Positions 2,888-63,625 of a stretch of 64,000 nt of DNA are shown here, in pieces. Position numbers and translations under genes: made by a program. Every line of letters begins with the position of its first letter. Position 1 is the first letter of the stretch. A model generated the notes under the pieces. It had not been told where the DNA came from. It made no database searches and was given only the letters and a program-made list of their open reading frames with translations. The stretch is from Cyanidioschyzon merolae (lineage: Eukaryota): NCBI GenBank assembly GCA_000091205.1, contig AP006496.2. One strand, written 5' to 3'.

Positions 2888-3045
2888 CACATCTAGATGC
2901 ATCGATCACTCAACGCAATCCGCATTGCACTGCCACGGTGATCGTAGATATCAACGTAAGTGCGCCTGCATACAAGCACATCTAGATGCATCGATCACTC
3001 AACGCAATCCGCATTGCACTGCCACGATGATCGTAGGTAGAAACG
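2888..3045. repeat. Direct tandem duplication, ~90-bp unit x ~1.7
   Basis: Unit 'acatctagatgcatcgatcactcaacgcaatccgcattgcactgccacgRtgatcgtag...' occurs at 2888-2977 and again from 2978, with 2 mismatches in the first 60 nt. Confidence 0.6.
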
Positions 3046-7200: not shown

Positions 7201-8108
7201 AAATAGAGAGTATAGGCGAGACGAATGCCGTGCGTCTCGTTCACCGGGGTGATCCATGCGGGTGACGGTTCCACTGAGGGCACAGGATTGATGCTCTGCG
7301 GAGATGCAGCCGGTGTTGCCGCTGAAACCTGCACGGTACCGTCTACGGTCCAGTTCTGGAAAAGCAGTGGGCTATCGCCGGAGGCAAACAATCCTATGGT
7401 TCCGGAGAGCATTGCGTCTGTAGCTGTATCCACAAGGGTGCCCCATGGACTCCAACCGTTCAGACTCGCCTGGAATCCGCGTCCAATGGCGGTAAGTGTT
7501 AGGATGAAGGAGTCGCTGGCGTTCAGGCTCGGAACACTGGTGGCATTCGATGTCGCGAGCGTACGCCCCTGAAAGCCGGGTCGTAGTCTTTCCAGAGTCA
7601 GTGTCTGATTCGGACCCGTCCAAAGCAGCAGATAAAAATCGCTCACATCCCGTGCACGTGCAACGATACCCACAGTACTACTGTTGGCCGAAGCGTTAAC
7701 AGCGGCTGTCACGGTGTAGTCGGTCCAGTGCGCTATAGCGGTGCTGTTAACAAACAGCGCAAGGGCACCTTCGAAATCTGTTGACTCCAGGATCGTCGTG
7801 TTCGATGTTGCGTTTCCACTGCCCGCAGGCCCAGGCTCGTATAGTAACGTTCCATCGCTGAGAAGCGACCAGCTCGTTTCAGCAGACGCAGACGAACCCT
7901 CGCTCAGCACAAGGTACGAGCGGAGGCTCTCGAACGGCAGACTGCATGGACACGCACTGAAATTGAACGAATCGAGAGAGAAAAGCTCTGATACTTGAAC
8001 CGCCTGGCGCTCTAGATCAAGAATCAGCGCTCCAGCCAACTCAACGGATACAAGTGCAAGCAACAAACAAAAGAGAATAGCTACCCAGCCACGACACCAG
8101 CGTCGCAT
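4221..8108 (-). CDS. Single continuous ORF. It has an N-terminal signal peptide, an N-glycosylation-rich ectodomain, a polyS/polyQ tract and a TM helix, fused to a complete C-terminal Sec1/Munc18 (SM) family domain.
   Basis: Track ORF 4221..8138 starts on TTG. The first ATG is at 8108 (MRRWCRGWVAILFCLLLALVSV = signal-peptide-like). More than 20 NxS/T sequons occur in the first ~400 aa. TM helix AGVIGGVVASVVLGLAAVLGALYYVYRRRQRQR. From M552 (nt 6485) downstream the SM-family hallmarks are present: 'RLVLIDRATDPLTPLRHDLAYDAFLHDM' (cf. Munc18 [23 protein letters not shown]) and C-terminal 'LMIFFIGGLTRTECRIAATF...VYIGGTHLLTPSLFLDNL' (cf. [20 protein letters not shown]...VLIGSTHILTPQKLLDTL). No in-frame stop separates the two modules. 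Confidence 0.6.
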   Translation of the reverse strand: MRRWCRGWVAILFCLLLALVSVELAGALILDLERQAVQVSELFSLDSFNFSACPCSLPFESLRSYLVLSEGSSASAETSWSLLSDGTLLYEPGPAGSGNATSNTTILESTDFEGALALFVNSTAIAHWTDYTVTAAVNASANSSTVGIVARARDVSDFYLLLWTGPNQTLTLERLRPGFQGRTLATSNATSVPSLNASDSFILTLTAIGRGFQASLNGWSPWGTLVDTATDAMLSGTIGLFASGDSPLLFQNWTVDGTVQVSAATPAASPQSINPVPSVEPSPAWITPVNETHGIRLAYTLYFPAMNLSDYAGAIDVVIRSALDTRLGFQTTWLVGVRAGSVYASYYSLVTDSSPYASANGTALASARLQSYVCGGRLTFDTGILATCPSGTIDVAEVAPTAEPAPSSSSSSQQQQQGSSSSSSSSNAGVIGGVVASVVLGLAAVLGALYYVYRRRQRQRNNAKRRLQRADDEETELEKRTTLSIAALSSACGTVGGGGGGTAPDKHSIPPQRSTGPKRPPETPGVSQTLRSTPSLREALRMRFVGATFGSIRPRHGCWETLVLDARCTHILAAVCRLSDLADHGITGVESLEEAAQLKNLPSRTNTIFLVTGDDTSLAQVAQVCTGLSPRASSSTPTPTSTRHQRRFDVLLLAIRSITSPLLDVVRTSLGGMHASLQVRELHADLVPIDDYAFSFELPELFGTFYGRNTGPSGNRPEQGDSSTQWKRACKQLGDQLASVLQILGLELPKIEIHTTHIASSVAMGIADALRAAMNAETSRSTAEAVYVTASVPSACTEAPSDELRAAGTGTSRSRYRRRSVRLVLIDRATDPLTPLRHDLAYDAFLHDMFPVPVDSHPTSIVVKPQRSLFKTTSIGSIPLTLNTPDDPTWLRLRYLDIHEAASSAHVELDRFLIETGHASQSSQREFALGSARSRPRNEGSANATLGDKSVVEYQRVVERLSFHLDQLEKCTALYQSRYMASIVQLEAILVTGKDPRSGKKVRRAEQQQQVEALLQQPNVEPSAKLRLILLWVACRGADANLLVRWMAKAQIDDRGRASLRAFIECLRAERHSAEPIKRQRRARDGAPLLLEILGRCAAAGNTSENPVSPSIDSSPGADATSTSTSTAARAFMSTTAAPSTTHTRTQRYQEYLPSGLQMRTPPVRSGQPSPLQSIGSVLEQDALLPTGAHVSQSAMEIRSASSEHDACRNCAASSTSALVEARPVSTQSSAPSQDVLMIFFIGGLTRTECRIAATFARQMPNLDVYIGGTHLLTPSLFLDNLADLVHKSKVAESI
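6829..6895. repeat. Coding triplet repeats (CTG)n/(GAC)n encoding a polyS/polyQ tract
   Basis: gctgctgctgctg...ctgctgctgctgctgcgaggacgacgacgacgacgac. Inside CDS 4221..8108 this gives SSSSSSQQQQQGSSSSSSSS. Confidence 0.7.
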
Positions 8109-8429
8109 AGGAGGCCAATGTGCATGAGTTGCCAACAAGCCTCGTGTTGGTTGCCTCCTATGTGAGCGTTACCGCTGTCGCTCTCGTCACCAGGGTAACG
8201 AATGAGCCAGAAGGACGACACTTGGCATATGCGACTTGCGTCCACGCTAAACACCGTTACCTGAGCGACGACGCATCCAAAGCAACGGTGCTTTCCCCGA
8301 GGGATAGGTACGCTTTGCTCAGCAGCAGCGCGTAACGGACGCGTTCTAGGGGCGCGCGGCACAACGATCCGCATCGGGGCCATTTTCGCTCTGGAGGGCG
8401 CACCCCAGGCTCGACGTCGATTCTGTTCC

Positions 8430-9340
8430 ACCTCTCCTAGTACCTCAGTGGTGTGTAGCAAGCGAACAAAGTCACTATGGAATGTACCCTGTAGATCGTA
8501 GAAGAATTGCCTGGAGGATATATTCTTTACTGAAAAGTTCAAGGAAGACTGCATCTCTCCTTCAGGTTAGTCATACCACGGTACTTAGATGGTTGAGGAA
8601 CGCTGAAAGGAAGAAGTACAAGCGCTCTGCACCTAAAACCGATATTCTCAAAGCGCGCTTGCGGGAAATGGTAGAAAACGACCCCTCGTTTACGTTACGG
8701 AAAGCAAAAGCGACGATAGAGGCCGCCACGGGCATCTCTGTTTCTCAACAGCTTGTTCGTGTGGTCCTGAAATCACTGGGATACCGTCGCAGAAAAGTCC
8801 AGCTTCACGCACGACCAACATCCACTGAAATCGCAACGACAGCGTTCATGGAGAGTCGCTATCGATATGAAGCCGAGTGACGCTGGTGTGTTTTTTCTGT
8901 CGATGAGACTTGCTTCGGGTGAAACGGGCGGTGCGTATATGGGTATTCGCGGAGCAGGGCGCTCATTGTACGTCTGTTGAAGCTCGAAGAGAGCGATGAT
9001 ATCCTCATCGGATTTATCTGGAGTGGGCCCGGGTGGCAGAATCACGTTCGCTCCTAGAGAAGGCGCACACAACAGCACCGACCTGGTCGATTCACTGGTG
9101 ACCTCTCCCTGACGTCTGGCGACGTGCTTCCAATGGACAATGTTGCATGTTACCATTCCCTTTGCGTTAGGGCTTTTGCCGATGATATCGGGGTCGAGTT
9201 GCTTTTCATTACTCCGTACGGTGCGTGATTCAACCTCAGCAAGGGAGTGTTTTTTATCATGCAACGTAATGATTGCTGCACTGGAGGAATCGCAGAAGCG
9301 TTCTGCACACAGCGACAAACCGGGAGCACAGGTCAGCTTT
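8430..9340 (+). mobile_element. Decayed Tc1/mariner (IS630-superfamily, DDE_3) transposon relic
   Basis: ORF 8482..8880 encodes a transposase-type N-terminal HTH (RRRIAWRIYSLLKSSRKTASLLQVSHTTVLRWL...). Downstream, in shifted frames, lie remnants of the DDE core: 'VFFSVDETCFG' (first D), 'MDNVACYHS' (second D) and 'GVELLFITPYGA*FNLSK' (degenerate LPPYSPDLNPIE block, stop in place of the catalytic region). Total length ~0.9 kb is shorter than an autonomous element. A second ~80% identical copy starts at 63690. Confidence 0.6.
8482..9330 (+). pseudogene. Tc1/mariner-like transposase pseudogene (frameshifted, internally deleted)
   Basis: HTH N-terminus is intact. The DDE_3 core is broken by frameshifts and a stop. 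Confidence 0.55.
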
Positions 9341-10022
9341 CTTGCGCAAACCCCGGTCTTCTTCGGGAACATCTCAACCTAGCGGCATAAAAAATGCATT
9401 CATTTTGAAGAAATAAGGGAATCCACGTGAAAGTAATGGACATGAAAGTCGGGGATACACGAGGGCCGTCATCGCCAGCCGCCTGGAAGAGAAACGGAAA
9501 AATCCTCTTCTCACCGAACATCGAGCGAAGAAGCGCAAGCGACGAAGAAGAAGGAGAAGGAGAAGAGGGGAGATCGTCGAGAAAACGTATTTGCCCAGCG
9601 GGACGAAGACGAGACTGTCGAAGCACAGCAGGCGCGAGCTCTACACAACCCTTGCAACGGTGAGTTCCACCAGCGGCAACAAATCGCAAAGAGTTCGTAA
9701 ACCGATCCTTCAACATCTCCATGAATACCAGACGATGTGCAGTGCTGTCGACCAGACCCGCAGAGCTGACGCGTTCCATCTTTGTAGTGTAGCCTCTGAA
9801 GCTCGAAGTATTCAAGGAGAAACTGAAGCCGATGCCAAGAGGCCCGTCGAAAAAAGACTGAGAGGCTTCAGAGGATATATACACGCCCCATGATAGTGCA
9901 AAGAACTGCGTTTCATTGAACACGCGCTGACGCGAGTACAGTTTGGTTGCGCTTGTACTTGCGGTAACGCTACGTCTCGAAAAGCGCGCATTAACCTCAC
10001 AGATGCTTTTCTTGCACTTCCA

Positions 10023-17649: not shown

Positions 17650-17905
17650 GCAGATCATTCTTGACGCTACATCCACGTTAGATTATTTATACTCGTTCTC
17701 GGAGATTCTGGTCATTTCCTGCGACAAAAAACTGCCGAGGCTGTCTTGAGCACCCGCAATAACGCCCATACAACCGGTGCGGATTCAGTACGGAGACGAA
17801 ACGGCTTCGAAATACTCCCGGGAGCGTCGGCTCGAGGCACGCTTCACTAGTCACAGAATCGGGATGCATCATCATTCTGGGAGCCTGAATCCTGCGCATA
17901 CGGAA
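17650..17905 (-). repeat. Dispersed diverged repeat, family A (copy 1)
   Basis: The reverse complement aligns with 31955-32185 (~70-75% identity by eye; shared blocks 'ttcaggctcccagaatgat..atcccgattctgtgactagtgaa', 'agccgtttYgtMtccgYactgMatccgcacc', 'aaatgaccag'). The same-orientation segment 17790-17900 aligns with 35030-35140. Confidence 0.5.
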
Positions 17906-19320
17906 GCACTGCCTGTGGAGGCGCGAAGCGATGTGCTAGGAGTCCACTGCGACCATAGCGACGCCCCTACGCAGCTTACCAGCTACGGGTCCCAGAATGA
18001 AATGCGTTTCGGACAAGCAGCCATGTATTGGCTCAGCACCCGTCAGTGCAGAAGCACACAAAGCGCTGGCCCAGAACACTCATCCGGCTCGCAGGACCTG
18101 CCTCTTAGACGTAAATGGTCGAATATACAGGGAATGTTTTCCCCTTTCATCGCTCACCATATCCATTCAAACACCAGGTTCTCGAGTTGCTAGTGCGCAT
18201 TTCGTTTCTTCGAGATTGCTCATGCACACGATTCTACCCGCCGCTGCGTCTTCTCTCCGTGCATTGCCGGGCACAGCAGCAGGCACACAGCACCCCGAGT
18301 GACATATGAACTGGGCATGCACTCCGAAGGGAAGCATGTTCAGTGACTAGCTTAACTTGGAGGTCGGATGCGGCATGATGGGCGTTTTCACTTATGTCGA
18401 TACCTTTCGCGTACAATAGCGCGTCGTCGGTTCCTCTGGGGGTTCCGTCGATCAAAAACACAGGCGCGATGCTGTGCGGGTAGCCGCGCGAAGCACTGCT
18501 TCCAAATAGCGTCAAGGCGAGATATCTTTTGATGATTGATCCACGAATCTGACCAGCAATCCCCGGGATATGCAACCGCTGCCTATACCCAGGGAAGCGA
18601 GCCCTCATGTGCTTCGGAGACCTCTGGGTCACGTGAATCACGCTCCAGTCTGACTGTCGAGAATGAGCGTTTCATTCACCAAACGAGCCTCCAAGCGTTG
18701 AATCCTAGTCCAGCACCGGACATAGCACCAGCAAACGCGGGCATCTCAGCACAGAACACGCGTATCGTGCCTGCAAAGAAGACTTCACTCGCAGGATTTG
18801 ATGTTTTTCTCACTGCATCCATCGATGGCAAGCGCCATGGTTAAATGCCTACCCGCTAGAATCTTTCCCGAGAATAGAGGATCGTTTACCATGACCAGGG
18901 ATTCCCCACTGCACGACGCTCACTGGTATCCGAGAGCGTGTCGCTTGTTCCGCACCTCACCGTCAGGGTCCATTGGCGAACCCGCTTCATCACTGTCCAG
19001 GATATGCTGGAGCATACCGAACGCAGTCAGCTGGGTACACGTGTGGGAAGCAGCCCGTCGAGAAGCGTGGCGCTGGGCGAGCTACATCTCCCGACGTGGC
19101 GGAACGGGTGCAAAGCATCCCAAAACAGCTTCCGTTCGTTGCTTGAAGCAAGTGCAGGCACCGGATACCGTTCAAAAGCGCTTTCATACGTATCACGTTC
19201 GGTTCGAAAGAGCGCTTCGTCCAAGTCGGGACTGGACGACGTTCGTGTGTTTCCGGAAGTGGAGACGCAAGTCGGCGACAATCCTTGTTTTACAGCTCCC
19301 GCAACAGTCGTAACAGCGCG

Positions 19321-27253: not shown

Positions 27254-29785
27254 GGTGCTCAGGTTACGGTACTGAACAGTTGCATAGTACCACACGTTCT
27301 ATACGTCAACTGATGGCGAATGCGTCTCGCGGAGCTCGCGTTTCGTCGATCGAGAAGCGCATCGATGCGATTCTCGATCAATAGAGCTGGTGCTTTCCGC
27401 TGCTGACGCTGCCGCCTTTTTTTGGATAGGCGTGGTGTGCTTTGGCATTTGTGAGCTTGGCAACCTGGTGTGCCACTGGCGCTTGCGACAGGCCCCATAC
27501 GGCTTGGTTTTCGAGCTTGTGTCGTGTCCGAACGACACACATTTGAGGTACTGGTGTGGGCAGGATGTACATTGATGACGCAGATAATCGCAGGCATCCG
27601 GTTTATGCTCGTGGGCATTGCGCAGCTGATGGTCTGGGTTCGGGCGAAGCATCGGCAGTCTCTGAAGGAATTTGGAACCCTCTATCCCTGGATGAAGAAA
27701 CGCATGCTTCCTTTCGTTTGGTGAATGCGCAGCGGGTCACGAAATTTGTGTGCGTGCTGATGGGCAAGCCCTGACTTGGAGGTACGAGGCCGGTGCGCTT
27801 GTGACTTTTCGTCACTTTTGGATGATGGTGGATTCGGTGATCGTTGGAAACCGTGTAGTGAAGTGCACCCATACTCGTGATGGTGCTCGATAGTCGAGCA
27901 ACCAAAGTGCACTCGGATATTTTTCCCAGAATACCGTGGCGGCGACTAGACATCACCCTGAATATGAACGTTTAGGGTACGCGCTTGTTTTACGTACGTA
28001 TTAGGAAACCGTAGCATGCTGTGCGGCTTCGTTGCGCACTATTCACGGCCAGCATGCCGTCACCAGAGCACCTGGTGCCGGCTGCAGCCTCCAGCTTCTG
28101 GTACCGATCGTTTGATAGCGCCAGTCAAGATGGATCGTTTCTTGACCTCAGCTCTATCACTAGCGTTTTCGACAAAACGTCATCAATATCAGAAGACGAC
28201 TGGTGATGGAGGCGCGACCGGCGGAGCTGACGCGGTCCACCTTTCTGGGACATCCTCTCAGGGTCGAATTGTACAAAGAGAAGCTGCAACCGATAGCAGG
28301 GGGCCGGTCGAAAAAGGCTAGGAGACGTCTGTGATTGGATATTAATTTACCCTAAATGGTCGTGAAACGTTTTCTTTCCATTGAACGGTAAGGGATAGAG
28401 AAAAAATCCGTCTCTCGAGCAGTTTTACTACTGGAAGGGAAAAATCAGCAGGTGGCTAACGAACATCCGCGTGCTTAAGGAATGGCGGGTGGCGTAGGGG
28501 GTGCAGATAAGTTTACGGTTTGGTGCTTGCACAACTACATACAAGTTAGGCTCTTGAAACTAATCTTATAGAGTAGATAAGAATACAGTATGTGCTTTTG
28601 TCGGGTGCCTCGATCGTGCCAGGCGAGATGCGTCGGCCGAACGTCGTGGCAGATATGGACGCTACCTGTGTGCTATGCCTCTGTCAAGATCACCGGGTCC
28701 GAGACAGTAGCAGGCACCATAACTTGGGCAATGACGATAGCATGGAAATGACTTGAACGGTCATCAGTACCAGCCCATGACGCCGGAAAGAAGCAAAATT
28801 CATGTCAGTTCCTTATTCCAGCGTCCGTGCAGCATGCATAACAAGCATAGAGAATAAACTTACATCCGTGTTCGGGAACACTACCGTATTTAGTTTGGTT
28901 ACGATCAATACAACTAACGAAACTCTTCAAGGCTAGTGTGATGCATACCTCATCCACACAAGCGTAAGCCGCAGAGAACGCTACGCTTTTGATAGAAGCG
29001 TCGAGAGGTATCGTGCCAGGCCCCAACAGCTCCATGTATGTCAGGGCGGTACTGCGATGGGCAGTAGCGTCGGCACCAGCGACATAGCCTATAGCAAGAG
29101 ACTACTCTACGTGAGTTTTCGATTTAGGACACCTGATTTTTGCTGCTGCGCGATGCGAACACGCAAGTGCCAAGGCGGGGTGTCGGACACGTGTCCTTCA
29201 TCGATCGGTGAGGCGTCTCGCGCGGTGCACGCATCGCGCTCGGTGAGCGCATCTGGGAGATCAGGCAGACATGAGACACGACATGTATGTCGCCGTTGAA
29301 GGGAAATGCGATCGCGATCTTTAGCGTGTTGCTCTCAAGTTGTATTTGCGTTAAAGTCATAGCAGAGTATACTTTTCAGGTCAATTATGTTTCAACCCTC
29401 AGTTTAGTTTATTCAAGTGATTTTTCGCGGTTTATATCAGAGGCGTTGATGGAGCGTTCTTTTTCAAAAAAACAAAAAAGGAAAGCTATGAAAAAGCAAG
29501 TCGGCGATCCTGGAGGCCCAGGGTCGCCGGCTGTCAGAAAAAAAAAACAAAAACAGTGCCGATTCCAGAAGAAAAGCAAGAGAAAAAGAAGCAAAAGGGG
29601 AGGCCTTACGTCGAAGGCGGCAAAAAAGACAACTGTACGACGAGATGGTGGTTAAAGGCTGTCTTCTTAAACAAATCAAGGATCCCCACAGGGAAACGTT
29701 GCGATACGCTATCGAAAAACGTGTCGACTCGTACTCGAAGAGTATTGTCAAGGCGTCGTCAGGACTGATGCATTTGTCGAGGTAG

Positions 29786-31713
29786 ATGTATCGCGAAGTG
29801 GCGCACATGGAAACGGTCGAGATTCCGGACGAGTTTTTCGACAAGACCTCTATTCGTCAGCTGATGCTTGGTACAGGGGAAGCGCGGAGGGAAACTCAGA
29901 TAGTGCATGCCCTCCACGAAAGCTTCGCGGAATTCCGCTTCGAAGGTAATCGATACAAGGGTGACTCGACTATTTACATATACGGGGCGGTGAAGTACCT
30001 CACGAACCTGAGGAACCATATGACGATGGACCTCGAACATTTTATGATACGCGCCGTGTTCGCTCTCGACCCGCGCATCTCTCGCAAAGGTGCACAGGCG
30101 ATGATCAATGGCATCACGAAAGATCGCAAGCGTGAAGATGAGGTCGAATTTGTAGACAAGAAGGCGTCAAAAGAGCGCATGAATGAAGCTTCTGTAATCC
30201 GTGCGGCTATCCAAGAGCATCGTGCGGTACTGGGGTTTGTTAATCCAACAGAAAAGATATCAGAGTTGAAAAAAGACAAGGAAAGATACTATCGCCTCGT
30301 CCTGCGATATTTCGTGTTTCTGGACCGAGAGCTCGAACGCAAAGCGGAGATGAAGCTGAGTGAGGAGAGAATTAAAAAAGAGTGGGAGAGACGGGCGGCT
30401 TCGCTCATGGGAAGCGCTTCTACGCGGTTCCAATGTGCAACATCAAGTCACATTTTGTGACGATCGACTCCAGCATCCTCTATGGCATCATGAGACAGAT
30501 CAGTGGGGAGTTCGATGTTAGCAACGGGAAGTTCATCGGTGAAAACCGGGAGATGCACTAGAAGAATATCTTCGAGTTCAAACTTCTCAAAGCGGGCAAG
30601 CAAAAGTTGTTCACTGGGATGATCGAAACCGATGGAGTAGCCTTGTGTGTACACGATCCGCGGTTGACGAAAGATCGTTCAGTGCCGCCCTCGGCTTCGC
30701 CCGTGGCGAAGGATGCAGAAAACAAAGCGGCGGATCCTGCGACGCAGCAGGTAGAGGATAACGACCTTGTCGTTGGTACGGCGAAGCATGAAGATGAGAA
30801 GGAGGCGGGTCTTGAGACGCAGAAAGTGCAGGATAACGACTTTGTCGTTGGCGCGGCGAAGCATAAAGATGAGAAGGAGGCGGGTCTTGAAACGCAGAAA
30901 GTGCAGGATAACGACTTTGTCGTTGGCGCGGACCTCGGGAACACGAATATCGTAACCATCGCAGCATCCACGCCTGGGGAAGATGATACTGACGGTGACT
31001 TACGTCAGAGAGACACGCGACTTTTGAGATTCCCGACAACGAGATGCTATCGAGAATCCGGTATAACGAATGCAAGGAAGAGAATCGAGATATGGAATGC
31101 AGGAGTGAAAGAGCACCTCGAAGCTTTGAGCGAGGTAACGAGCCGCGGAGCGGACTTTCGAGCTTTTCGGGAATTCCCGCAAGTTCGTGTTGCTCATTGG
31201 GATGCGCTGTAGAGGAGTATACAAAGCCTCGGTGGGCTCGTTTGCGAATGAACTTGCACTGTGGGAAGCAGCGTGCATTCGCGAATTTTTTCAATGAGTT
31301 GCGTGCCCTGAAGGAGGATGAAAGTCAGAGGCCCGTAGTAGCGTCTTGGGCAGGGCGATGGAAGACCCAAACAGGGACTACTCCAGCTCCAACGACGAGG
31401 GTATGCAAGGAGTGTGCACGGCGTTTCGTTACAATACCGATAGATGAGTTTCGAGCATCGTATACACACCACGAGCTGGGTTGTACACTTCAGAGGGTCG
31501 AGATGGAAACGTGTCAGCGGCGCCCTGAGGATACAAAAAGTACGGACCGCTGACGGAAGAGCAAATGGAAAGGAGGGCGACAGTTCGTGGACTCCTTGCA
31601 CTAGCGCTTTCTGCAAACAACGGCAAGAAACGTATCGAATCGTGAACGGAGACTTTAACGCCGCTATCAATATAAGGAAATGTACGGTGATGGAAAGAAG
31701 ACCTCCAGAGTAG
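29786..31713 (+). CDS. Fanzor-like RNA-guided nuclease (eukaryotic TnpB homologue), interrupted gene. Four ORF segments lie in different frames and are most likely joined by introns.
   Basis: Segments 29786-30460, 30607-31212, 31044-31553 and 31444-31713. RuvC-I '[21 protein letters not shown]' (D codon at 30931). Zn-finger CxxC '[10 protein letters not shown]' (31404). '[11 protein letters not shown]' (31594). RuvC-III '[15 protein letters not shown]' (D codon at 31651). Order I, ZnF, III with ~240 aa between the RuvC-I and RuvC-III aspartates. Total span ~640 codons, typical for Fanzor1. Confidence 0.6.
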
Positions 31714-31889
31714 ACGAGTGAGAACTTTGGGGACAACCTCTCAGCGTGGGACTATATGAGAAAAAGCTGGAAGCAGTAGTGAGTGGCCGCCCCCAAAAAA
31801 CCGGGAGGCACCTGCACGACAGTTGGAGGCTTCTTGTCTAGGGCGGGCTTCGCGCCACTACTGTACAAGGTCGGCATCGTTTTTCTTTT
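31600..31889 (+). ncRNA. Candidate omega-RNA scaffold (3' end of Fanzor ORF plus conserved non-coding tail up to the element right end)
   Basis: ~175 nt after the stop codon (31714-31889) is conserved between both copies and ends at the exact point where the flanks diverge. This position is analogous to TnpB/Fanzor omega-RNA. No structure or expression evidence is available. Confidence 0.25.
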
Positions 31890-31954
31890 GAAAGACGTTT
31901 GTTTCCAGGGGTGGCTCCTAGTATATTGCTTCGCGCTGCCGCAGGCACTAGTCC

Positions 31955-32185
31955 TGTATGCGCAATTTCAGGCTCCCAGAATGATAAGGAATCCCGATTC
32001 TGTGACTAGTGAACCGACCGTCGATCCAGCATCCTCTGTAGTATTGCAAAGCCGTTTTGTATCCGCACTGCATCCGCACCTGCGGTGTCAGCGCTATTAC
32101 GCATGCTTGAAGCAATTACTCTGCGAATGATAGAACGTACAAAATGACCAGTACATCCGAAAGTAAGTTTAAGTTATGGAACTTG
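31955..32185 (+). repeat. Dispersed diverged repeat, family A (copy 2, inverted relative to copy 1)
   Basis: See 17650-17905. It lies ~65 bp beyond the right end of Fanzor element copy 1. Confidence 0.5.
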
Positions 32186-32723
32186 AACGTAAGTTTCACT
32201 TTGATGAACGCATTTGGGACTACCAATATCCATCCCCGCAATAACGGATCCAGGGTCGATGTACAGGTTTAGCCATCGGAAAAAATATATTGCGTAAGCA
32301 GCCTTCATATGTCAGCGCTCTTGTATGCTTCGGATTCCGAACCGGGCTTGCCCGACGTAAGCGCCCGAGGCACGCAGGTGTAAGAAGCCAGCGAGCGAGG
32401 AAGTCTGCTGGCTAAAACAGCAGTCGGGCAAACCAGCGAGCCAGTGTACTCCACGAGGGCGAGACACGAGCTCGCCTGCAGCCGCACGTGCTGGGTACTT
32501 CAGCGACTCCAAACGAGCCACCGCTCAAACTCTTTTACGTCAAGCAGTTGTGGACGTCCCGTGGTGATGCAGACGAGTTTCTGCCTGAGGCAAAAACGTT
32601 TTGGAAATAGGTCAACTTGGCGGTGAACGAGGACCTGGTAGTACTGGCAAGTGGCCCTGTCGACGACACTGTGGAGGCATGTTCACCGGTGGCGAAGCAT
32701 TTGCGCCAGCGCCTCATCGTCCC

Positions 32724-33731
32724 ATGTCAAGACTAGGTCGCCAGCGCTGGGCTAGCGCTGCTGGTGAGTCCGACACGCACCAGGCCCAAGCAGCACAGTG
32801 TCGCGGCAGGCAGCACTTGGTAGCTCTCGACGGAGCAACCGCCACTGCGGCTGCCGCTACAGAAGGGCACTTTCGTACAGCTGCAACAGTACTGCCCGTT
32901 AGGGTGTCGAGCACGATTCCATCGCAACTTTCACGAAAGTCAGCAGCACGAGCAGTCACAGCAGCGACAGTGATGTGTTCGTCACCGTACGAGCACCGGC
33001 ACTCTGCGGAAACGTCCCCCGGATTGCAACGTGTTGCTAGTTCCGCGACGACCGCTGCGACATCGCGAGACCAACCCATTGTATTCTTCTTTGATGTGAT
33101 GGATACTCTTGTTTGTGACCCTTTTTTCAAGGACATGCACCTTCACTTTGGATTTGACAAACGCGAGGACTTTCTCGCCGCAAAGCACCCGGAGACCTGG
33201 ATTCGCTTCGAGCGAGGTGAACTCTCGGTTACCGATCTGGAGCACCTCTTCTTCAGACCGCTGCACACGCTCCCATTGCACTTGGCAAAGCATGCAAGGT
33301 TCAATGCCCGTCGCTTTGAAGCGTATCTTCGCGAGTCTTACAGATTCATGGATGAAGGCATAGAACCGCTGCTCGAGTGGCTTGCATCGCGACAGCCTCC
33401 TGGCACGCTGCATATTCTCTCGAACTACCCCTGCTACTATCGATTCATTGAAGAGAAGTTGGGTCTATCGAGGTACTTATCGTGGACGGCGGTCAGCTGT
33501 GAAACCGGCCTCCGGAAACCTGATCCTCGGGCCTATGCCGAGGCGGCAACGCGGGCTGGCGCGTCAGCTTCACAATGCGTTCTGATCGATGACCAAAAGC
33601 GGAACATTGACGGTGCTCTGGCTGCTGGCTTTGGGGCGGCAATCCTCTATCCCGGCACGAGTTCGGCGTTGCGCTCTCTTCTGGAAGAGTTTCTAGATGG
33701 AAACAACGTCGGCAAGAAGGTGGGCTTTTGA
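32724..33731 (+). CDS. HAD-superfamily hydrolase (haloacid dehalogenase-like), with a possible transit-peptide-like N-terminal extension
   Basis: Track start 32601 is TTG. In-frame ATGs at 32679 and 32724. HAD motif I 'VFFFDVMDTLV' (DxDxT/V), motif II 'LHILSNYP', motif III 'RKPDPRAY', motif IV 'VLIDDQKRNIDGA'. Confidence 0.6.
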   Translation: MSRLGRQRWASAAGESDTHQAQAAQCRGRQHLVALDGATATAAAATEGHFRTAATVLPVRVSSTIPSQLSRKSAARAVTAATVMCSSPYEHRHSAETSPGLQRVASSATTAATSRDQPIVFFFDVMDTLVCDPFFKDMHLHFGFDKREDFLAAKHPETWIRFERGELSVTDLEHLFFRPLHTLPLHLAKHARFNARRFEAYLRESYRFMDEGIEPLLEWLASRQPPGTLHILSNYPCYYRFIEEKLGLSRYLSWTAVSCETGLRKPDPRAYAEAATRAGASASQCVLIDDQKRNIDGALAAGFGAAILYPGTSSALRSLLEEFLDGNNVGKKVGF

Positions 33732-34974
33732 ATGCACTGGATGCGTGTTTTGTAAGGAGATTTTGCATAGAACTCGAGGGTATCGGAGAATGCAGACGCT
33801 TACACCAGCATATGCTCCGAGGCTGCCTCGAACAACGTTCGTAACGACGCGATTCGATCCAATTTAGTACAGTCGAGAGAGCAAGCCTGTCCTGCTCGTG
33901 TCGAGCGAGATCGCCGCGTGGAATAGTACTCAGCGCTGCTCTGGATCCTGCCAGTGGATTGCCCACAACTGCCAGAATACGTATTCGCAAAGCGCAGGGA
34001 TCGAGCGACAGATGACTTTGCGGACACCACTTCTCTTGGTGAGTCGGCGCCAGCGATCGGTAAAACTGGTTCCGTTCATGGACAAGGCGGCACGGATACG
34101 CTCGATTTGCGGTCTGGCAAGGAAACGAAACACGCTGTAGTGTCTACGAAGCCAAGTACGTTCAAGGCAGCAGCTTTGTTCGGCCATAGGTTAGAATCGT
34201 TCCATGAGACATGCAGCATGTAACAGAGACTATGAAGCGTGCAAGTGTATTTCTGGACTGCGTGCACACGCCAGAATCGGCATTGGCCGTCAAAAAAGCA
34301 GGCTGAAAGGTATTCTCTGTGTTTCCAAGGACGCATTCGGACTCGTTCAGTAAATCAACGGGCTTCATCGAGAACGCGGACGCAGGACTGGAGGTCGACG
34401 TGCGTACGGATGCGGCAGCGCTATCCGCAGCATCACTTGAACCAGATCTGGAAGGGGCTTGTTGTGAAGTATACCTCTGTTGCTTCACTTGTTGGTATTC
34501 GAGCCATTCGGATGCTCCGTATTTGCTCCGCATCATCAACACCGTGCTGAACGGCTCCCGTGGCGTGTATGTGTCCATGAAAGCGACGCGAGCTCAGAGT
34601 CTCGAGTGCATGTCGAGATCGCACTGCAAATTCCCGTTAAAAGGATGCGACGCTCACCATCAAATGCAGCTTCCAACGATAAATCTCTGTACACGGGTTT
34701 GTGGTGGCAGGTTGTCCCATTGCCGTCCAGATGGGTGCACACCTTCTGAGCAATATGCAGCAGCGTTTGCATATTTTCAATCGGCAAAACGTTTGCATAG
34801 GCCAGCGTTCTCCGATTGTGCGCTCTTTCTTTTCTTACTTTTTTTCAATGTGCGGTGAAGTATCCATCAAACATCCTACCTCCAAGTTACATCACCTATA
34901 CTTCTTCTCGGATATTCTGGTGGTTTTATAAGTTCTATCACTCACCTAATGCGCGCCCTGCTAGTCCGCAAAGG

Positions 34975-35140
34975 CTCCTGAACCGCTGGAACGGGTTCAC
35001 CACAGTGACAGAACGGCGTTACCGTACCACAGCGGGCGTCGGCTCGAGGCGTGCTTCACCCGACGTAGAATCGGGTCTCATCGTCAGTTTGTGCTCAGTC
35101 AGTCTGCGGATGCAGGCTTGCCTTCGCTGCACGAAACGCT
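34975..35140 (+). repeat. Dispersed diverged repeat, family A (copy 3, partial)
   Basis: 'gcgtcggctcgaggcRYgcttcac...agaatcggg...catcRtca' aligns with 17815-17900 (~65-70% by eye). Confidence 0.4.
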
Positions 35141-36057
35141 GGAGGAACTTGGCTGTTAGGATGAATTCTGGGAGTCGTCTGTCTCCTTCGTGATCATGCA
35201 TGGAATGCGTTCTTGGTTGGCAATGCGGGTTTGTGCTTGACACCCACCACAGTGGGTAGGCGCAGAGAGCACTGGGCCCGTGTGCGCATCCGATTCGCTG
35301 GACCTTCCGCTTGGAAGGTAGCATGTGAGTTTGTTCGCCACTGATGAGCGCTGAGGCTCGGTTAATGGACCATCAGTTGCCAGTGCTACACTCAGAGTGA
35401 GTGTCCGGCCTTCGTCTATCACGGTGAAGCCCAGCTGCTGCTGTCCTTCAAGGAGCTCGGTTCGCTCCTGTTTCCAGCGCGGGCACTGTAAGCCTAAATA
35501 TGCCAGCGTCTCCGGAATCTCGTCTCGATAGCAGGGACAGTGTTATTCCCAGTGCGATTCCAGTGTTCCTATACGGCTTAGAGACGGTGCTGCTCGCCAG
35601 AAGCCACCGACGCGTATTGTGGCGAGCCACTAGGTACCTCGAGCTAGTCCCGGGAACTCCAGCGCCTCCCACCAGTACGTGCATGAACAGGCTAGGCTGT
35701 AGTTCCGGTACAGAGTCAAGCCGGCGTTGAGGGCGCGACTGGTTCCGTGGCTACGTTCCCATATTGTTGTTTGGACCGTTCGCTTAAGGCGGCGGGAGCC
35801 TTCTATATTTCTGGGGAACGATTGGGGAGCGTGTTTTCGCCTAGGGGGCGCTTCAGCCAAATCTGCGTTGATTTCAACCAAGTGATCTTGCGGTGCATTG
35901 GGGTTTGCATGGATATGCGACTGAACCAGGTGTGCATGGTGGGCCCTTTGGCCCATATACGTGCCCGGTATCCTGCTGCTATCGCTTCTGTCGAGGATTT
36001 CTGGAGTTCAAGTCCGAGTGCCAGGAGGTATCGCGGTCGATACGCGCACCTCCATAT

Positions 36058-38420
36058 CTGGCGGGCATGAAACACCACGCGCATGTCGCCGTTAAAGGGA
36101 AACGTGATCGCGATCTTTAGCGTGTTGCTCTCAAGTACGAGTTGTATTTGCGTTAAAGTCATAGCAGAGTATACTTTACAGTTCAATTATGTTTCAACCT
36201 TCTTAAACATATCAAGGAACCCCACAGGGAAACGTTGCGAGACGCTATCGAAAAACGTGTCGACTCGTACTCGAAGAGTATTGTCAAGGCGTCGTCAGGA
36301 CTGATGCATTTGGCGAGGTAGATGTATCGCGAAGTGGCGCACATGGAAACGGTCGAGATTCCGGACGAGTTTTTCGACAAGACCTTTATTCGTCAGCTGA
36401 TGCTTGGCACAGGGGAAGCGCGGAGGGAAACTCAGATAGTGCATGCCCTCCACGAAAACTTCGCGGAATTCCGCTTCGAAGGTAATCGATACAAGGGTGA
36501 CTCGACTATTTACATATACGGGGCGGTGAAGTACCTCACGAACCTGAGGAACCATTTGACGATGGACCTCGAACATTTTATGATACGCGCCGTGTTCGCT
36601 CTCGACCCGCGCATCTCTCGCAAAGGTGCATAGGCGATGATCAATGGCATCACGAAAGATCGCAAGCGTGAAGATGAGGTCGAATTTGTCGACAAGAAGG
36701 CGTCAAAAGAGTGCGTGAATGAAGCTTCTGTAATCCGTGCGGCTATCCAAGAGCATCGTGCGGTACTGGGGTTTGTTAATCCAACAGAAAAGATATCAGA
36801 GTTGAAAAAAGACAAGGAAAGATACTATCGCCTCGTCCTGCGGTATTTCGTGTTTCTGGACCGAGAGCTCGAACGCAAAGCGGAGACGAAGCTGAGTGAG
36901 GAGAGAAATAAAGAGTGGGAGAGACGGGCGGCTTCGCTCATGGGAAGCGCTTCTACGTGGTTCCAATGTGCAACATCAAGTCACATTTTGTGACGATCGA
37001 CTCCAGCATCCTCTATGGCATCATGAGACAGATCAGTGGGGAGTTCGATGTTAGCAACGGGAAGTTCATCGGTGAAAATCGGGAGATGCACTAGAAGAAT
37101 ACCTTCGAGTTCAAACTTCTCAAAGCGGGCAAGCAAAAGTTGTTCACTGGGATGATCGAAACCGATGGAGTAGCCTTGTGTGTACACGATCCGCGGTTGA
37201 AGAAAGATCGTTCAGTGCCGTCCTCGGCTACGCCCGTGACGAAGGATGCAGAAAACAAAGCGGCGGATCCTGCGACGCAGCAGGTAGAGGATAACGACCT
37301 TGTCGTTGGTACGGCGAAGCATGAAGATGAGAAGGAGGCGGGTCTTGAGACGCAGAAAGTGCAGGATAACGACTTTGTCGTTGGCGCGGCGAAGCATAAA
37401 GATGAGAAGGAGGCGGGTCTTGAAACGCAGAAAGTGCAGGATAACGACTTTGTCGTTGGCGCGGACCCCGGGAACACGAATATCGTAACCATCGCAGCAT
37501 CCACGCCTGGGGAAGATGATACTGACGGTGACTTACGTCAGAGAGACATGCGACTTTTGAGATTCCCGACAACGAGATGCTATCGAGAATCCGGTATAAC
37601 GAATGCAAGGAAGAGAATCGAGATATGGAATGCAGGAGTGAAAGAGCACTTCGAAGCTTTGAGCGAGGTAACGAGCCGCGGAACGGACTTTCGAGCTTTT
37701 CGGGAATTCCTGCAAGTTCGTGTTGCTCATTGGGATGCGCTGTGGAGGAGTATACAAAGCCTCGGTGGGCTCGTTTGCGAATGAACTTGCACTGTGGGAA
37801 GCAGCGTGCATTCGCGAATTTTTTCAATGAGTTGCGTGCCCTGAAGGAGGATGAAAGTCAGAGGCCCGTAGTAGCGTCTTGGGCAGGGCGATGGAAGACC
37901 CAAACAGGGACTACTCCAGCTCCAACGACGAGGGTATGCAAGGAGTGTGCACGGCGTTTCGTTACAATACCGATAGATGAGTTTCGAGCATCGTATACAC
38001 ACCACGAGCTGGGTTGTACACTTCAGAGGGTCGAGATGGAAACGTGTCAGCGGCGCCCTGAGGATACAAAAAGTACGGACCGCTGACGGAAGAGCAAATG
38101 GAAAGGAGGGCGACAGTTCGTGGACTCCTTGCACTAGCGCTTTCTGCAAACAACGGCAAGAAACGTATCGAATCGTGAACGGAGACTTTAACGCCGCTAT
38201 CAATATAAGGAAATGTGCGGTGATGGAAAGAAGACCTCCAGAGTAGACAAGTGAGAACTTTGGGGACAACCTCTCAGCGTGGGACTATATGAGAAAAAGC
38301 TGGAAGCAGTAGTGAGTGGCCGCCCCCAAAAAACCGGGAGGCACCTGCACGACAGTTGGAGGCTTCTTGTCTAGGGCGGGCTTCGCGCCACTATTGTACA
38401 AGGTCGGCATCGTTTTTGTT
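36058..38420 (+). mobile_element. Fanzor/TnpB-like element, copy 2 (degenerating)
   Basis: Collinear with copy 1 but lacking the 258-bp segment 29406-29663. Flanks are unrelated to those of copy 1. Confidence 0.6.
36322..38246 (+). pseudogene. Fanzor-like nuclease pseudogene: premature stop, RuvC-I substitution and 3-bp deletion relative to copy 1
   Basis: TAG at 36631-36633 where copy 1 has CAG (Q). RuvC-I reads 'VVGADPGNTNIV' (L>P, ctc>ccc). 'ERNKEWERR' versus '[10 protein letters not shown]' in copy 1. The frame structure is otherwise identical to copy 1. RuvC-III '[12 protein letters not shown]' is retained. Confidence 0.6.
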
Positions 38421-38502
38421 TTGAAAGGCGGTGGTGGTGTGGTGTGTGTACGTCCTTTCTGAACCGCCAATTTTTCGATAAAAGCCCGAACTGCGTGAGA
38501 TT

Positions 38503-38892
38503 GTGACCAGCGCCAATATGGACGTTGCGTCAGGTACGAAAACGGTGCCCGGGGAGAACGTTTCGCAAACCGAGTCTGACAATCTCGTTGTTCTGGAGCG
38601 GCTTGCAGCGAACCTCTTTCTGCGTGTCAACGAGCTTGAAAGAGCGCTGCCGTCGTGCGAGAATGCTGATGGAGAGACGGGCTCAGAAACGCAAGCACTA
38701 TTGCTAGCACGAGTCTCGGAGCTAGAGTCACAGGTTAGATCGCTGACCCACGAAAACGAACGCCTCAAGTATCGGATCCGGCACTTGGTACGCAGTCTAG
38801 AGGCGGTTTTGAGCCCCCGCACCCAGGTCACGAATACTACCATAGCGTCAGCAGCAACGCCGGTGAACGGCAACCCAGCGGCCACTGAGTAA
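38503..38892 (+). CDS. Hypothetical small coiled-coil protein (129 aa)
   Basis: ATG ORF immediately 3' of Fanzor copy 2. Heptad-like 'LERLAANLFLRVNELERAL...LLARVSELESQVRSLTHENERLKYRIRHLVRSLEAV'. No family assignment. Confidence 0.3.
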   Translation: MTSANMDVASGTKTVPGENVSQTESDNLVVLERLAANLFLRVNELERALPSCENADGETGSETQALLLARVSELESQVRSLTHENERLKYRIRHLVRSLEAVLSPRTQVTNTTIASAATPVNGNPAATE

Positions 38893-39435
38893 CACCGAGC
38901 TTGAGAAGCGCTACCCCTGGACGTATGCGTCTGGTACAGGGTGCACCGATCGAGTCCTCTGGTCAGGCGACACGGTCGGAGCCGCGTCTGTGCACGCTGC
39001 TCCGAACGAGCGCGCACTTTGGTACGCGCGACCCTTGTGAAGTTATTTGCTGAGCGACGTTGACCTGAACTCGTGTGCAGCGTACAAGCATGGGTACATT
39101 TGCAAGCGGACGCTGGCGCTTGCAGTCGCACAGGGCAGAGCCAGCGCAATGAAAGATGGTGCAGCGCGTTATGTCCGCACCGTTCTGCACTGCGAATGGA
39201 TCGTTCTCCGCCCGTGTCAGCATTAAATGAAACGGACTCACTAATTAGGGCGTACACGCTTAAGTTTGGGTGTCTGCCCGGAGCCATCAGCAACATTCGT
39301 TGCAGGCTTCTCCGGCTTTCAAGACGCTCGACTCTCTGATCTCTCTGGCCTCGTTGCAAGCAGTCGAAGGATGTTGATGGCATCTTTCAACTCCCGACTT
39401 GGTGCTTCCGGCAGTCGTCAACGCATTTGAAACAC

Positions 39436-57012: not shown

Positions 57013-58700
57013 AAGTTACATCTTCTATGCGTACGCATGCCCGAGGGGCATACGTGTTCCGTGGAGCAGTGCCCGAGCATGGCGGCGGGTGCTCCATATA
57101 CATGTCCGTAAAACTTGAAATGTTCTACGACCACGACGGGTATGCGTACATTTTTACGCGCTTACGCCTCTTAGCTTTTCTGACCGGCATTCTGCTATCG
57201 GTTTCAGCTTCTCCTTGCACAGTTCGAGCCTGACAGGCTGCCAAGTGAAGCAGGAATTGTGTCAGCTCCTCGGGTCTCGTCTTCAGCACCGCACATCGTA
57301 TGATATTGATGACGGCGTTGAAGTCTCGCTTCACCAACTCCTTGCGTTTATTGCCTCTGGTTGAACTCACCAATGCAAGGATTGCTAGAACTCGTGCTCT
57401 CTGTGCCGTTTGCTGCAGTGTCAGCGCTGCGCTGCCTTCTCTCCATCACGATCTTCTGCAGTGTACATCCCAGCACATCCCTTACATATTTTGATTCTTC
57501 AAATGTACGCACTTCTTTATGCCCGTAGGTAAGGAATTCCCCTGAAAGAGAAGGACTGGTGGCAGAAACAGGTCATGCGCCCTGGTGTGTCACCGTGTGC
57601 TGAACGCATCAGCGATTCGCCCAGTGCAGCGATGTTTACGTTTCACGATGGAAAACATACACTGAATGGGCATGAACCACGGAGTGTACGGCGGAATGAA
57701 AATCAGCACTATCCCCGCCAGAATTTGCAAAAACCCCGAACTTAACGGTAATCTAGAAATGCCACGTGGTCCTTTAGAAGAGCGTCGTCATACGGCATCG
57801 AAAATTCTCCAATGATTCGACAAAGAACGTGCTGTTGTATCAGCCTTGCCTGTGAGCGAAACTGAGGCCGCCAAGTGGATCCGCTCCACCTGGACCAGAC
57901 GATGATTTCCGAGTTCTCCTCACGTTCGATTGTACATACAACGGAACACCCTGCTCCGCGAATACCCGTATACGCTCCAACCGTCTCATCCGATGAAAGT
58001 CTCATCAACTGAAAAAACAAACCGACTTGCCTGTGCTTCATACCGATGGTTGAGTTCTGTGAATTCTGTTGTTGCGGATTCGGCGGAAGCTGTGCTTTCG
58101 TGAACCTGGACTTTATTGCGCCCGGATCCCAGTGTTTTGAGGGTCAAACGAACAATCTGTTGAGAAACAGAGACGCTTGTGGGAACTATTATCGTCGCTC
58201 TTTGCCTTCCGCAAAGAGATCGATCGGTTGTTTTTCTACCGTAGACCGCAAAAAGTCTTTAAAAATATCGGTTTTTGGCACTAAACTCCTTTCTTCTTTC
58301 ACTGTTCCTAAACTATCCGCGTACCGTGGTACGACTGACCTGAAGGAGGAGCGCAGTCCTTCTTCCACTGTCCAGAAAAGAATATATATACTACAAGCGA
58401 TTCGTCTACGATGTATACGATACTTTGCATCGTGATTTCGATAGCCTCCTACGTGCCACACTCTGGGTGAAACAGACTTGCGTTGAAAGATTATGAAAAC
58501 CCATGCAGCCTAGCAGGCAGGTCGGAGTACGTAAATGAATCATATTGTTCCGTTCACAATGCAACGAGTCGCGCAGTCGGCTGCGGGCGGACGAATCGCG
58601 TACCGCGAGCCACGTTGTATGAAGCGGTGTCTGTCTTCGCACTGAAGTCGACGTCGATACTGCTTCTCCGGACGCTCGCTTCAACGCGATCCGGGAGAAG

Positions 58701-63399: not shown

Positions 63400-63502
63400 G
63401 GTCGTGCACACTCTCGACACTCTTGCGAGACGCCGTACAGGTAAATCGCTCTATGGGAATTAGTGTTGATGCCGGGTGCGCTCTCGCCCGGTATCTCCGG
63501 AC

Positions 63503-63625
63503 GTCGAGCAGGCGATGCAGCGGCGAGCAGGCGATGCAGCGGCGAGCAGGCAATGCAGCGAAGAGCAGGCGATGCAGCGGGCGTGAAGGCAATGCAGCGG
63601 CGTGAAGGCGATGCAGCGATCACCG
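63503..63625. repeat. Minisatellite, ~18-bp unit x ~7 (agcaggcgatgcagcggcg / gaaggcRatgcagcgg variants)
   Basis: 'ggcgatgcagcggcgagcaggcgatgcagcggcgagcaggcaatgcagcgaagagcaggcgatgcagcgggcgtgaaggcaatgcagcggcgtgaaggcgatgcagcg'. Units are contiguous with no unique spacers. Confidence 0.7.

Follow-up and report, generated by a model that had tools for sequence, protein, structure and literature searches.

Within the 64,000 nt stretch of Cyanidioschyzon merolae DNA analysed here (contig AP006496.2; hereafter the window), two copies of a Fanzor-like gene, copy 1 and copy 2, are each followed by a conserved non-coding region. Fanzors are RNA-guided enzymes of eukaryotes that cut DNA. The most plausible reading of the non-coding region is an omega-RNA-type 3' scaffold that belongs to a new Fanzor1 family of the Cyanidiophyceae and is carried in the window on two dead, gene-converted copies. 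A first-pass annotation had interpreted the abrupt end of similarity behind the two genes as the junction between an omega-RNA scaffold and a reprogrammed, copy-specific guide. The comparison with relatives speaks for the gene and for the scaffold, and points to another origin of the boundary.

In the explanation that we favour, a Cyanidiophyceae-type red alga would carry a Fanzor1-type element with a single gene, and the two copies would be old paralogues of it that are now dead. Related loci or contigs (L-numbers) and related proteins (P-numbers) were taken from Cyanidiophyceae-type metagenome contigs. In intact relatives, for example the one encoding P0001 on L001 (ORF at 6001-8259, 3' region at 8260-8460), the ~165 nt past the stop codon most likely encode an omega-RNA scaffold, composed of a long closing stem, helices inside it and a terminal hairpin with a conserved GCGUU behind it. 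By analogy with known Fanzor systems, this RNA would presumably be processed from the 3' untranslated region (UTR), and the nuclease would bind it. Gene conversion of copy 1 sequence onto copy 2 would have homogenised the interiors of the two window copies, with a tract end at ...GAAAG in this strain, and such a tract end would produce the pattern of identity followed by abrupt difference. The ~17-22 nt past GAAAG would then be the fast-evolving, G/T-rich end of the unit, inherited with the adjacent hairpin as a terminal module, and not fresh locus-specific guides. A canonical flank-derived guide, if the relics still yield RNA, would start only at ~31913 in copy 1 and ~38450 in copy 2. Taken as a whole (dead Fanzor1 paralogues, a scaffold 3' of the gene, gene-converted interiors and a tail that is the unit end), this explanation is considered moderately probable.

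Two inactivated copies of a Fanzor1-like gene

Coverage of copy 1 by 81 related loci rises at ~29230-29250 and falls at ~31895-31912, which delimits a common unit of ~29233-31912 for copy 1 and ~36030-38449 for copy 2. Both units lie on the plus strand. Copy 1 (29233-31912) consists of a left-end core, a pseudogene, the 3' scaffold and a tail; its limits follow from the coverage profile, the left-junction alignment and a tail common to L030 and L012 up to 31912. Copy 2 (36030-38449) resembles L001-L003 in its left end, its upstream flank and its tail. BLAST aligned positions 29663-31894 of copy 1 with 36199-38427 of copy 2 at 98.4% identity over 2232 nt, the differences being 32 mismatches and a single 3-nt indel. 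Identity is only 86.7% over the left ~140 nt (29260-29397 versus 36056-36198), and copy 2 lacks 265 nt that are present in copy 1 (29398-29662), including the ATG and the lysine-rich N-terminus. The tract of high identity starts within the gene (29663/36199) and not at the left end of the element.

The sequences quoted in the first-pass annotation were found where it had placed them, and its observation of two near-identical 3' regions was confirmed by base-by-base comparison. From the stop codon that it gave (31711-31713/38244-38246) to ...TTTTGAAAG (31894/38427) the copies differ only at 31716, 31861 and 31885. Similarity then ends abruptly, as had been claimed: 10 of the next 20 positions differ, with ACGTTTGTTTCCAGGGGTGG in copy 1 and GCGGTGGTGGTGTGGTGTGT in copy 2. 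Such identity and its collapse are far beyond chance. The stop codon itself was misassigned, since it is premature and the open reading frame (ORF) of the family ends ~7 codons further on, at ~31735.

Both genes are pseudogenes. Relative to intact P0001, the coding sequence of copy 1 (29449-31734, plus strand) runs through frames 2, 1, 3, 2 and 1, according to tblastn and three-frame translation, and carries stops at 29783-29785, 30559-30561 and 31711-31713. Copy 2 (36199-38267, plus strand) has no start codon, shows the same frameshifts and has its stops at 36319-36321, 37092-37094 and 38244-38246. At least four frameshifts and three in-frame stops are common to both copies. Because both ORFs are inactivated, any RNA made from the window copies would be without a nuclease encoded in cis.

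By homology and profile comparison, the gene is a Fanzor1 relative. The window protein, stitched together across frames, matches intact proteins of ~750 amino acids (aa), such as P0001, at 65% identity, and distant relatives (P0038-P0041) match it with E values of ~1e-9. A profile of 16 family proteins searched against the PDB had SpuFz1, the Fanzor1 of Spizellomyces punctatus (8GKH and related entries), as its sole match, with E = 1.2e-6 over profile positions 279-664. In this alignment the family motifs GADPG, DEFRTS and NRDFNAA fall on D383, E541 and D606 of SpuFz1, which have been named as its catalytic residues (PMC10432273). The earlier identification of a Fanzor-like gene is thereby upheld. 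The corresponding RuvC motifs, all on the plus strand, are VVGADLG at 30919-30939 in copy 1 (VVGADPG at 37452-37472 in copy 2), whose Asp aligns with D383; IDEFRAS at 31440-31460 (37973-37993), whose Glu aligns with E541; and a RuvC-III motif of 10 residues at 31645-31674 (38178-38207), whose Asp aligns with D606. Among 41 diverged copies, pairwise identity at codon positions 1, 2 and 3 is 0.85, 0.89 and 0.75, and this pattern shows that the family evolved as a functional protein under purifying selection.

The assignment was made via homologues and the profile-to-PDB search because Pfam gave nothing useful. Pfam reported no family for the ORF fragments, the stitched window protein, P0001, P0006, P0031 or P0037, and PF07282 (the TnpB Zn-ribbon) was recognised only in the distant relative P0038, with 26.5 bits against a cut-off of 26.3. 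Few cysteines are kept in the family consensus at the expected Zn-ribbon site (THHELGC...C). PDB searches with single sequences gave no matches, and an AlphaFold2 model of P0001 built on a 16-sequence alignment (mean pLDDT, the predicted local distance difference test, 48.3; pTM, the predicted template modelling score, 0.34) was too poor for a fold search.

Two coding features of the gene vary. Three 75-nt tandem coding repeats lie just upstream of RuvC-I on the plus strand (30705-30931 in copy 1, 37238-37464 in copy 2). Their translation, DNDxVVGxAKHxDEKEAGxxTQKVQ, in part duplicates the '..DNDFVVGAD' motif at the RuvC-I aspartate, and their number varies in the family, with three in the window and more in P0001 (residues ~390-470). 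The 265 nt specific to copy 1 code (29449-29640) for a Lys/Arg-rich N-terminus, MERSFSKKQKRKAMKKQ...KKSKRKRSKR, which is absent from copy 2 and from its allele L074. This terminus resembles the nuclear-localisation extensions of Fanzors (PMC10530073).

The 3' non-coding region

In copy 1 the candidate scaffold occupies 31736-31899 on the plus strand, up to the conserved GCGTT past the terminal hairpin, and in copy 2 it occupies 38269-38432; these limits rest on family conservation, a covariance model (CM) and minimum free energy (MFE) folding. A stretch of ~245 nt, comprising the ORF end and non-coding sequence up to ...CTTT[TC]GAA[AC]G, shows 73-82% identity in more than 60 distinct copies. 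The first ~90 nt past the stop have a conservation of 0.77-0.82, which is above that of codon position 3 (0.75). The last ~60 nt score 0.68, below synonymous sites, and the flank ~0.4. The two window scaffolds score 224 and 215 bits with the CM. The MFE of the copy 1 scaffold is -49.9 kcal/mol (z = -2.2), and in 10 out of 10 diverged copies the sense strand folds more stably than the antisense strand (mean z -1.65 versus -0.68).

A common architecture could be drawn from the individual folds of 10-14 diverged copies and from pair counts. A predicted closing stem P1 of 9-10 bp (31773-31864, plus strand) pairs GCAGUAGUG at 31773-31781 with CACUACUGU at 31856-31864, and encloses P3 (31805-31813 with 31827-31835) and P5 (GGCG at 31842-31845 with CGCC at 31853-31856). 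The terminal hairpin P6, CGUUUUUC-UUUU-GAAAGACG, lies at 31878-31897 on the plus strand (38411-38430 in copy 2); its 3' arm uses the first three nucleotides after GAAAG (+1 to +3) and the hairpin straddles that boundary. Two registers of this hairpin occur in the family: v1, CGUUUUUC-UUUU-GAAAGRCG, and v2, (GU)CGUUCGA-CUU-UCGAACG(GC). Five linked substitutions separate them, and strong stems are formed in both.

Fanzor omega-RNAs and fRNAs are encoded at the 3' end of the gene or element (PMC10530073, PMC10432273), and the position, conservation and foldability of the window region match those published RNAs. With ~165 nt that are conserved throughout the family and foldable on the sense strand at this place, the first-pass proposal of an omega-RNA scaffold 3' of the gene is sustained, and omega-RNA-type scaffold is a reasonable label for the region. 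The covariation support for its fold is modest. On the CM alignments with all matches, 20 pairs had double changes compared with 8.9 in controls, and with strong matches only the covariation was 0.119 versus 0.102, the slid controls giving 0.04-0.09. RNAalifold on the whole 246-column alignment gave only -1.4 kcal/mol, G/U-rich columns obscured the signal in a simple scan of all column pairs for helices, and an Rfam scan found no relevant family.

Several observations weigh against the explanation that we favour. On the sequence-based MAFFT alignment the covariation was 0.109 versus 0.099 and slid controls were similar, so that the covariation expected among further copies stood out above shuffled and slid controls on the CM alignments and equalled controls on the sequence alignment; the CM alignments, from which the stronger signal comes, are fitted to the structure. 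The RNA proposed for the 3' region is a prediction from sequence. The similarity of tails does not track the similarity of scaffold bodies (Mantel rho 0.07, p 0.22), and simple vertical co-inheritance of the whole unit is therefore not the full story. If the unit ends at ~+17, conservation is poor over the ~12 nt in front of the presumed guide, and a scaffold next to its guide does not usually look like this. At the level of the element, the left-junction alignment of 29 distinct copies showed no TAM-like motif (TAM, target-adjacent motif) 5' of the left ends, no inverted repeat was found that links the two ends of the unit, which are dissimilar on inspection, and the unit contains a single ORF and no transposase.

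Origin of the boundary and nature of the tails

For the analysis of the boundary, 38 independent copies were anchored at GAA[AC]G, with +1 as the first nucleotide after it. Identity is 0.64 at +1 (G), 0.90 at +2 (C) and at +3 (G), 0.64 at +4 (T), 1.00 at +5 (T) and 0.56 at +7 (G); it then falls to 0.32-0.43 from +8 to +16, where the sequence is G/T-rich, and to the background of 0.25 from +17 onward. Conservation past GAAAG is thus strong to +5/+7 (GCGTTTG) and weak to +16, the range over +6 to +16 being 0.32-0.56. A scaffold end at GAAAG, as assumed in the first-pass annotation, would cut the terminal hairpin, and its guide coordinates (31890-31910 and 38421-38441) include the GAAAG that belongs to this hairpin.

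The tails themselves recur. That of copy 1, ACGTTTGTTTCCAGGGGT (31895-31912, plus strand), which makes up most of the first proposed guide, is identical at L030/L012, whose scaffolds are 77% identical with unrelated flanks; similar tails occur at L019, at a solo right end in L017 and at a remnant in the window (28364-28383). The tail of copy 2, GCGGTGGTGGTGTGGTGTGTGT (38428-38449, plus strand), which covers most of the second proposed guide, is unchanged in the strain allele L082, and the sequence GCGGTGGTGGTGTG from it recurs at L069/L016/L067, L058b and L001-L003. A third tail, GCGTTTGTTGTCGCTGCCGTCG, is common to five further lineages. Orthology was rejected as the source of these shared tails in the case of copy 1, as neither DNA nor protein comparison shows homology between the window flanks and the distal flanks of L012/L030 and L069/L016; the upstream flank of copy 2 is L001/L003-like and its downstream flank is not. 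Tail 16-mers recur only at scaffold ends in the window and the 81 loci, and a protospacer search with all tails over the same ~700 kb gave no free-standing target, only a few chance matches with 2 mismatches. As the same tails adjoin other diverged copies, the two segments can hardly be locus-specific reprogrammed guides, and a copy-specific guide starting directly at the GAAAG boundary is not supported by these alignments.

Tail type follows hairpin type: TTTGT at +4 to +8 is present in 11 of 20 v1 copies and in none of 16 v2 copies (Fisher p ~3e-4, calculated by hand), and hairpin and tail are therefore taken to form one terminal module of the unit. L024 and L023a, with scaffolds 97% identical, are, besides copies 1 and 2, the sole near-identical pair with different flanks, and they can be aligned to +18. 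In their tails (GCGTTCGGTGCGGGCGCG at 2836-2860 of L024, ATGTTTGGTGTTGGTGTG at 4472-4496 of L023) all five CpGs of one are TpG in the other. This suggests methylation-driven decay, which may also be the source of the G/T-rich composition of tails in general. A hypervariability of the tail in L007 and L017 is not claimed, for the hairpin-plus-tail window is low (0.55-0.6), yet other windows are equally low.

The relation of the two copies to other loci accounts for the sharp boundary. At the left end copy 2 is closer to L001-L003 (90.2% identity) than to copy 1 (86.7%), while in the interior the two copies are 98-99% identical and neither exceeds 88% to anything else. In L074, a copy 2 allele from another strain with a left end 99.3% identical, one segment is nearer to copy 1 than to the window copy 2. 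Copy 2 combines a v1 hairpin with a tail that elsewhere is seen only with v2 hairpins. L082, the copy 2 locus of another strain, has the tail and distal flank of the window copy 2, and its identity to copy 1 stops at ...CACTACTGTACA, ~30 nt earlier, after which linker and hairpin are v2-type as in L003. As this allele shows, the end point of copy 1-like sequence varies between strains and the tail at the locus does not, and this combination points to gene conversion of copy 1 onto copy 2 with a tract end at GAAAG in this strain. On the alleles compared, the copies are thus a mosaic from gene conversion, and the sharp boundary reads as the end of a conversion tract and not as a scaffold/guide junction. 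For the annotation of such loci, a sharp boundary between identity and difference in nearby paralogues can be a conversion-tract end and not a functional scaffold/guide junction, and telling them apart takes an allele from another strain or an alignment of the whole family.

An ORF on the minus strand (38391-39383, 330 aa), which public collections list as a protein (P0162, 41 member sequences), runs antisense from the flank through the copy 2 tail and terminal hairpin, and led to L082. Its product is Arg/Ser/Cys-rich and without a homologue outside the species; it is probably a spurious gene call.

The first-pass model taken literally, which puts the scaffold end at ...UUUUGAAAG and reads the following ~20 nt (31895-31915 and 38428-38448) as locus-specific guides acquired on moving, has the layout of known Fanzor and TnpB loci in its favour (PMC10530073, PMC10432273), together with a divergence of the copies exactly at GAAAG and an enhanced similarity of tails over +1 to +16, about one guide length. 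It is nevertheless very improbable, since GAAAG is part of a hairpin that takes +1 to +3/+5 as its 3' arm, positions +2, +3 and +5 are 90-100% conserved in the independent copies, identical or near-identical guides would adjoin scaffolds only 77% identical at non-orthologous loci, and the tract of high identity begins in the ORF (29663), not at the left end. Flank divergence in other copies is also found at different positions: background is reached at +17, and in L082 the divergence point is shifted upstream with the tail unchanged. A more serious candidate, although still fairly unlikely, is a tail that acts from ~+6, past the hairpin-GCGUU, as a heritable guide, exchanged together with the terminal hairpin, so that sub-lineages would share a small guide repertoire; nuclease breaks at matching sites with recombinational copying could spread and maintain it, and intact paralogues could use the window scaffolds in trans, as with the 'ghost' loci of SpuFz1. 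The last strongly conserved nucleotides (-4 to +5) stand where a guide start would be expected, the variable stretch of 11-17 nt is followed by background, at different loci the same tails run into unrelated flanks, the tail goes with the hairpin and not with the scaffold body, upstream flanks vary in extent with 5'-truncated solo right ends among them, and SpuFz1 and C. reinhardtii provide documented cases of omega-RNA loci without an ORF (PMC10432273, PMC10530073). A guide of this kind is, on the other hand, at odds with the lack of a free-standing matching target in the ~700 kb and of a TAM motif 5' of the left ends, with the CpG to TpG differences of the L024/L023a tails, which include seed-proximal positions and look neutral, with window remnants that have no scaffold 3' half, and with the lack of evidence for an intact Fanzor in the window's own genome. 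Its extension, in which the ~12-17 nt past the hairpin-GCGUU are a heritable guide cassette and the family spreads by guide-directed breaks and one-ended recombinational copying, is decidedly unlikely; if true, it would account for why 3' ends are precise and 5' extents variable, why solo right ends exist and why loci whose distal flanks are unrelated share tails. On the present comparisons, a tail that is merely the end of the unit is preferred over a heritable guide carried in the unit.

The 3' region might also not be an RNA gene, but a transposon right end acting at the DNA level with a transposase supplied in trans, an ordinary 3' UTR, or both, conserved by the kinship of the copies. A palindrome or hairpin is present at both ends (left 29236-29250; right, ~12-17 nt from the end of shared sequence), and this subterminal geometry recalls HUH-type elements such as IS200/IS605 and Helitrons. 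The weak covariation on the unbiased alignment, the lack of an Rfam match and the lower conservation of the last 60 nt than of synonymous sites would also fit. We consider this unlikely, because the folds are strand-specific and reliant on G-U pairs, with sense above antisense stability in every one of the ten copies, the first 90 nt of the UTR are conserved above synonymous sites, pairs with double changes exceed controls on the CM alignments, and this is where the omega-RNA lies in all Fanzors that have been characterised (PMC10432273, PMC10530073). The roles of DNA end and RNA are moreover not mutually exclusive.

Neighbourhood, family and known systems

The common core of the unit starts with the palindrome GCGCTC-GGT-GAGCGC at 29236-29250 (plus strand), as placed by the left-junction alignment, and at least five recurring classes of upstream sequence were seen among the left junctions. 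A degenerate 3'-end remnant was found by nhmmer and the CM (60 bits) at 28206-28408 on the plus strand, ~0.8 kb upstream of copy 1; only its first ~115 model positions are convincingly homologous, and the sequence GAAACGTTTTCTTTCCATTG at 28364-28383 resembles a right end. Two partial scaffold-like remnants with the 5' half only lie at 9745-9869 (plus strand) and 57157-57286 (minus strand; both by nhmmer and CM). A repeat of ~1.3-1.4 kb, repeat Y, is present at 8468-9869 (+), 57157-58438 (-) and 27494-28331 (+); each copy closes with ~150 nt from the start of the Fanzor 3' region, made up of the last codons and the scaffold 5' half, and has neither a recognisable Fanzor ORF nor the scaffold 3' half. 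A breakpoint inside the scaffold, between GG(A/C)GTCTG and CACG, recurs at 28331, 9869, 57157 and 60482 of the window and at ~920 of L007, ~370 of L017 and ~2848 of L070. The window remnants all stop there, and the 5'-truncated solo right ends of other loci all start there; a hotspot for insertion or recombination is conceivable, and so is a processing site.

Another repeat, X, follows the copy 1 tail directly (31915-32280, +), with a diverged inverted partner at 34774-35086 beyond a HAD-hydrolase gene (32601-33731) and a third copy at 17776-17947 (-). Of the 81 related loci, ~24-28 have X-like sequence at most 4 kb from the Fanzor, and in L055, L056 and L061 it stands directly upstream of the ORF. 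X may belong to another element as its inverted repeats, or may mark a neighbourhood that is preferred. The copy at 17776-17947 was tried as an empty site and rejected, as homology begins only at ~+14/+15 of the copy 1 tail, with unrelated sequence upstream of it, and an empty site could not be rebuilt from it. Two same-orientation Fanzor 3' ends occur ~2.4-3.9 kb apart in L063, L062, L053, L052, L058 and L023, with ~3.8 kb between right ends in several loci, and in others a full copy is preceded by a solo right end that is truncated on its 5' side. With these paired ends, copies 1 and 2 only 6.5 kb apart and a remnant upstream of copy 1, local clustering or tandem arrangement is suggested. 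Two short tandem repeats in the window are unrelated, namely 2878-3046 (2 x ~89 nt, 90-93% identity) and 63502-63619 at the right edge (~38-nt units). The flanking ORFs encode a BK channel, Sec1, a trehalase, a helicase, ABC transporters and the HAD hydrolase. The trehalase is nearest to those of Cyanidium caldarium (52%) and Galdieria (42-44%), and has a 99% match in a JGI metagenome, which fits an intron-poor red alga of Cyanidiophyceae type as the host.

A single metagenome scan revealed at least 344 relatives of the window Fanzor, from which 80 loci were retrieved, and no description of Fanzors in the Cyanidiophyceae was found in a literature search. If our explanation is true, thermo-acidophilic red algae, with Cyanidiophyceae-type genomes from hot-spring metagenomes, host a large Fanzor1 family; some relatives would have intact ORFs of ~750 aa and all a recognisable omega-RNA-type scaffold. 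For those who seek heat-tolerant compact editors, intact members could be of interest where their hosts live at 40-56 C.

Among known systems, SpuFz1 (Spu-1 elements; 8GKH; PMC10432273) resembles the window family in its single-ORF units of ~2-2.7 kb, in many full and partial copies per genome, and in a conserved non-coding region at the 3' end, parts of which are kept by ORF-less or partial loci. It differs in that sequence identity is very low, the window unit has no flanking inverted repeats, the family has no Zn-ribbon/TNB domain detectable by Pfam, its ORF carries the variable 75-nt tandem repeat, its conservation extends ~5-16 nt beyond the last hairpin, and the window copies are pseudogenes. 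The fRNAs of ApmFNuc, KnFNuc and CrFNuc-1, from giant viruses and algae (PMC10530073), likewise consist of ~200 nt of conserved, structured 3' non-coding sequence at the right end, with conservation reaching into the ORF end and with ORF-less fRNA-like copies in C. reinhardtii. Those loci have defined boundaries at the right inverted repeat or right end (IRR/RE) and a guide of ~21 nt beyond, seen in RNA-seq, whereas the boundary described here is graded (+5, +7, +16) and known from sequence alone. The bacterial IS200/IS605 TnpB-omega-RNA systems, for example ISDra2, also combine a RuvC nuclease gene with a guide RNA at the 3' end of the gene or the right end, and have asymmetric, hairpin-containing element ends. 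In contrast to these, the window family has a eukaryotic host, a larger protein (~750 aa) with a Lys/Arg-rich N-terminal extension, no TnpA, and no TAM-like motif detectable at the left flank.

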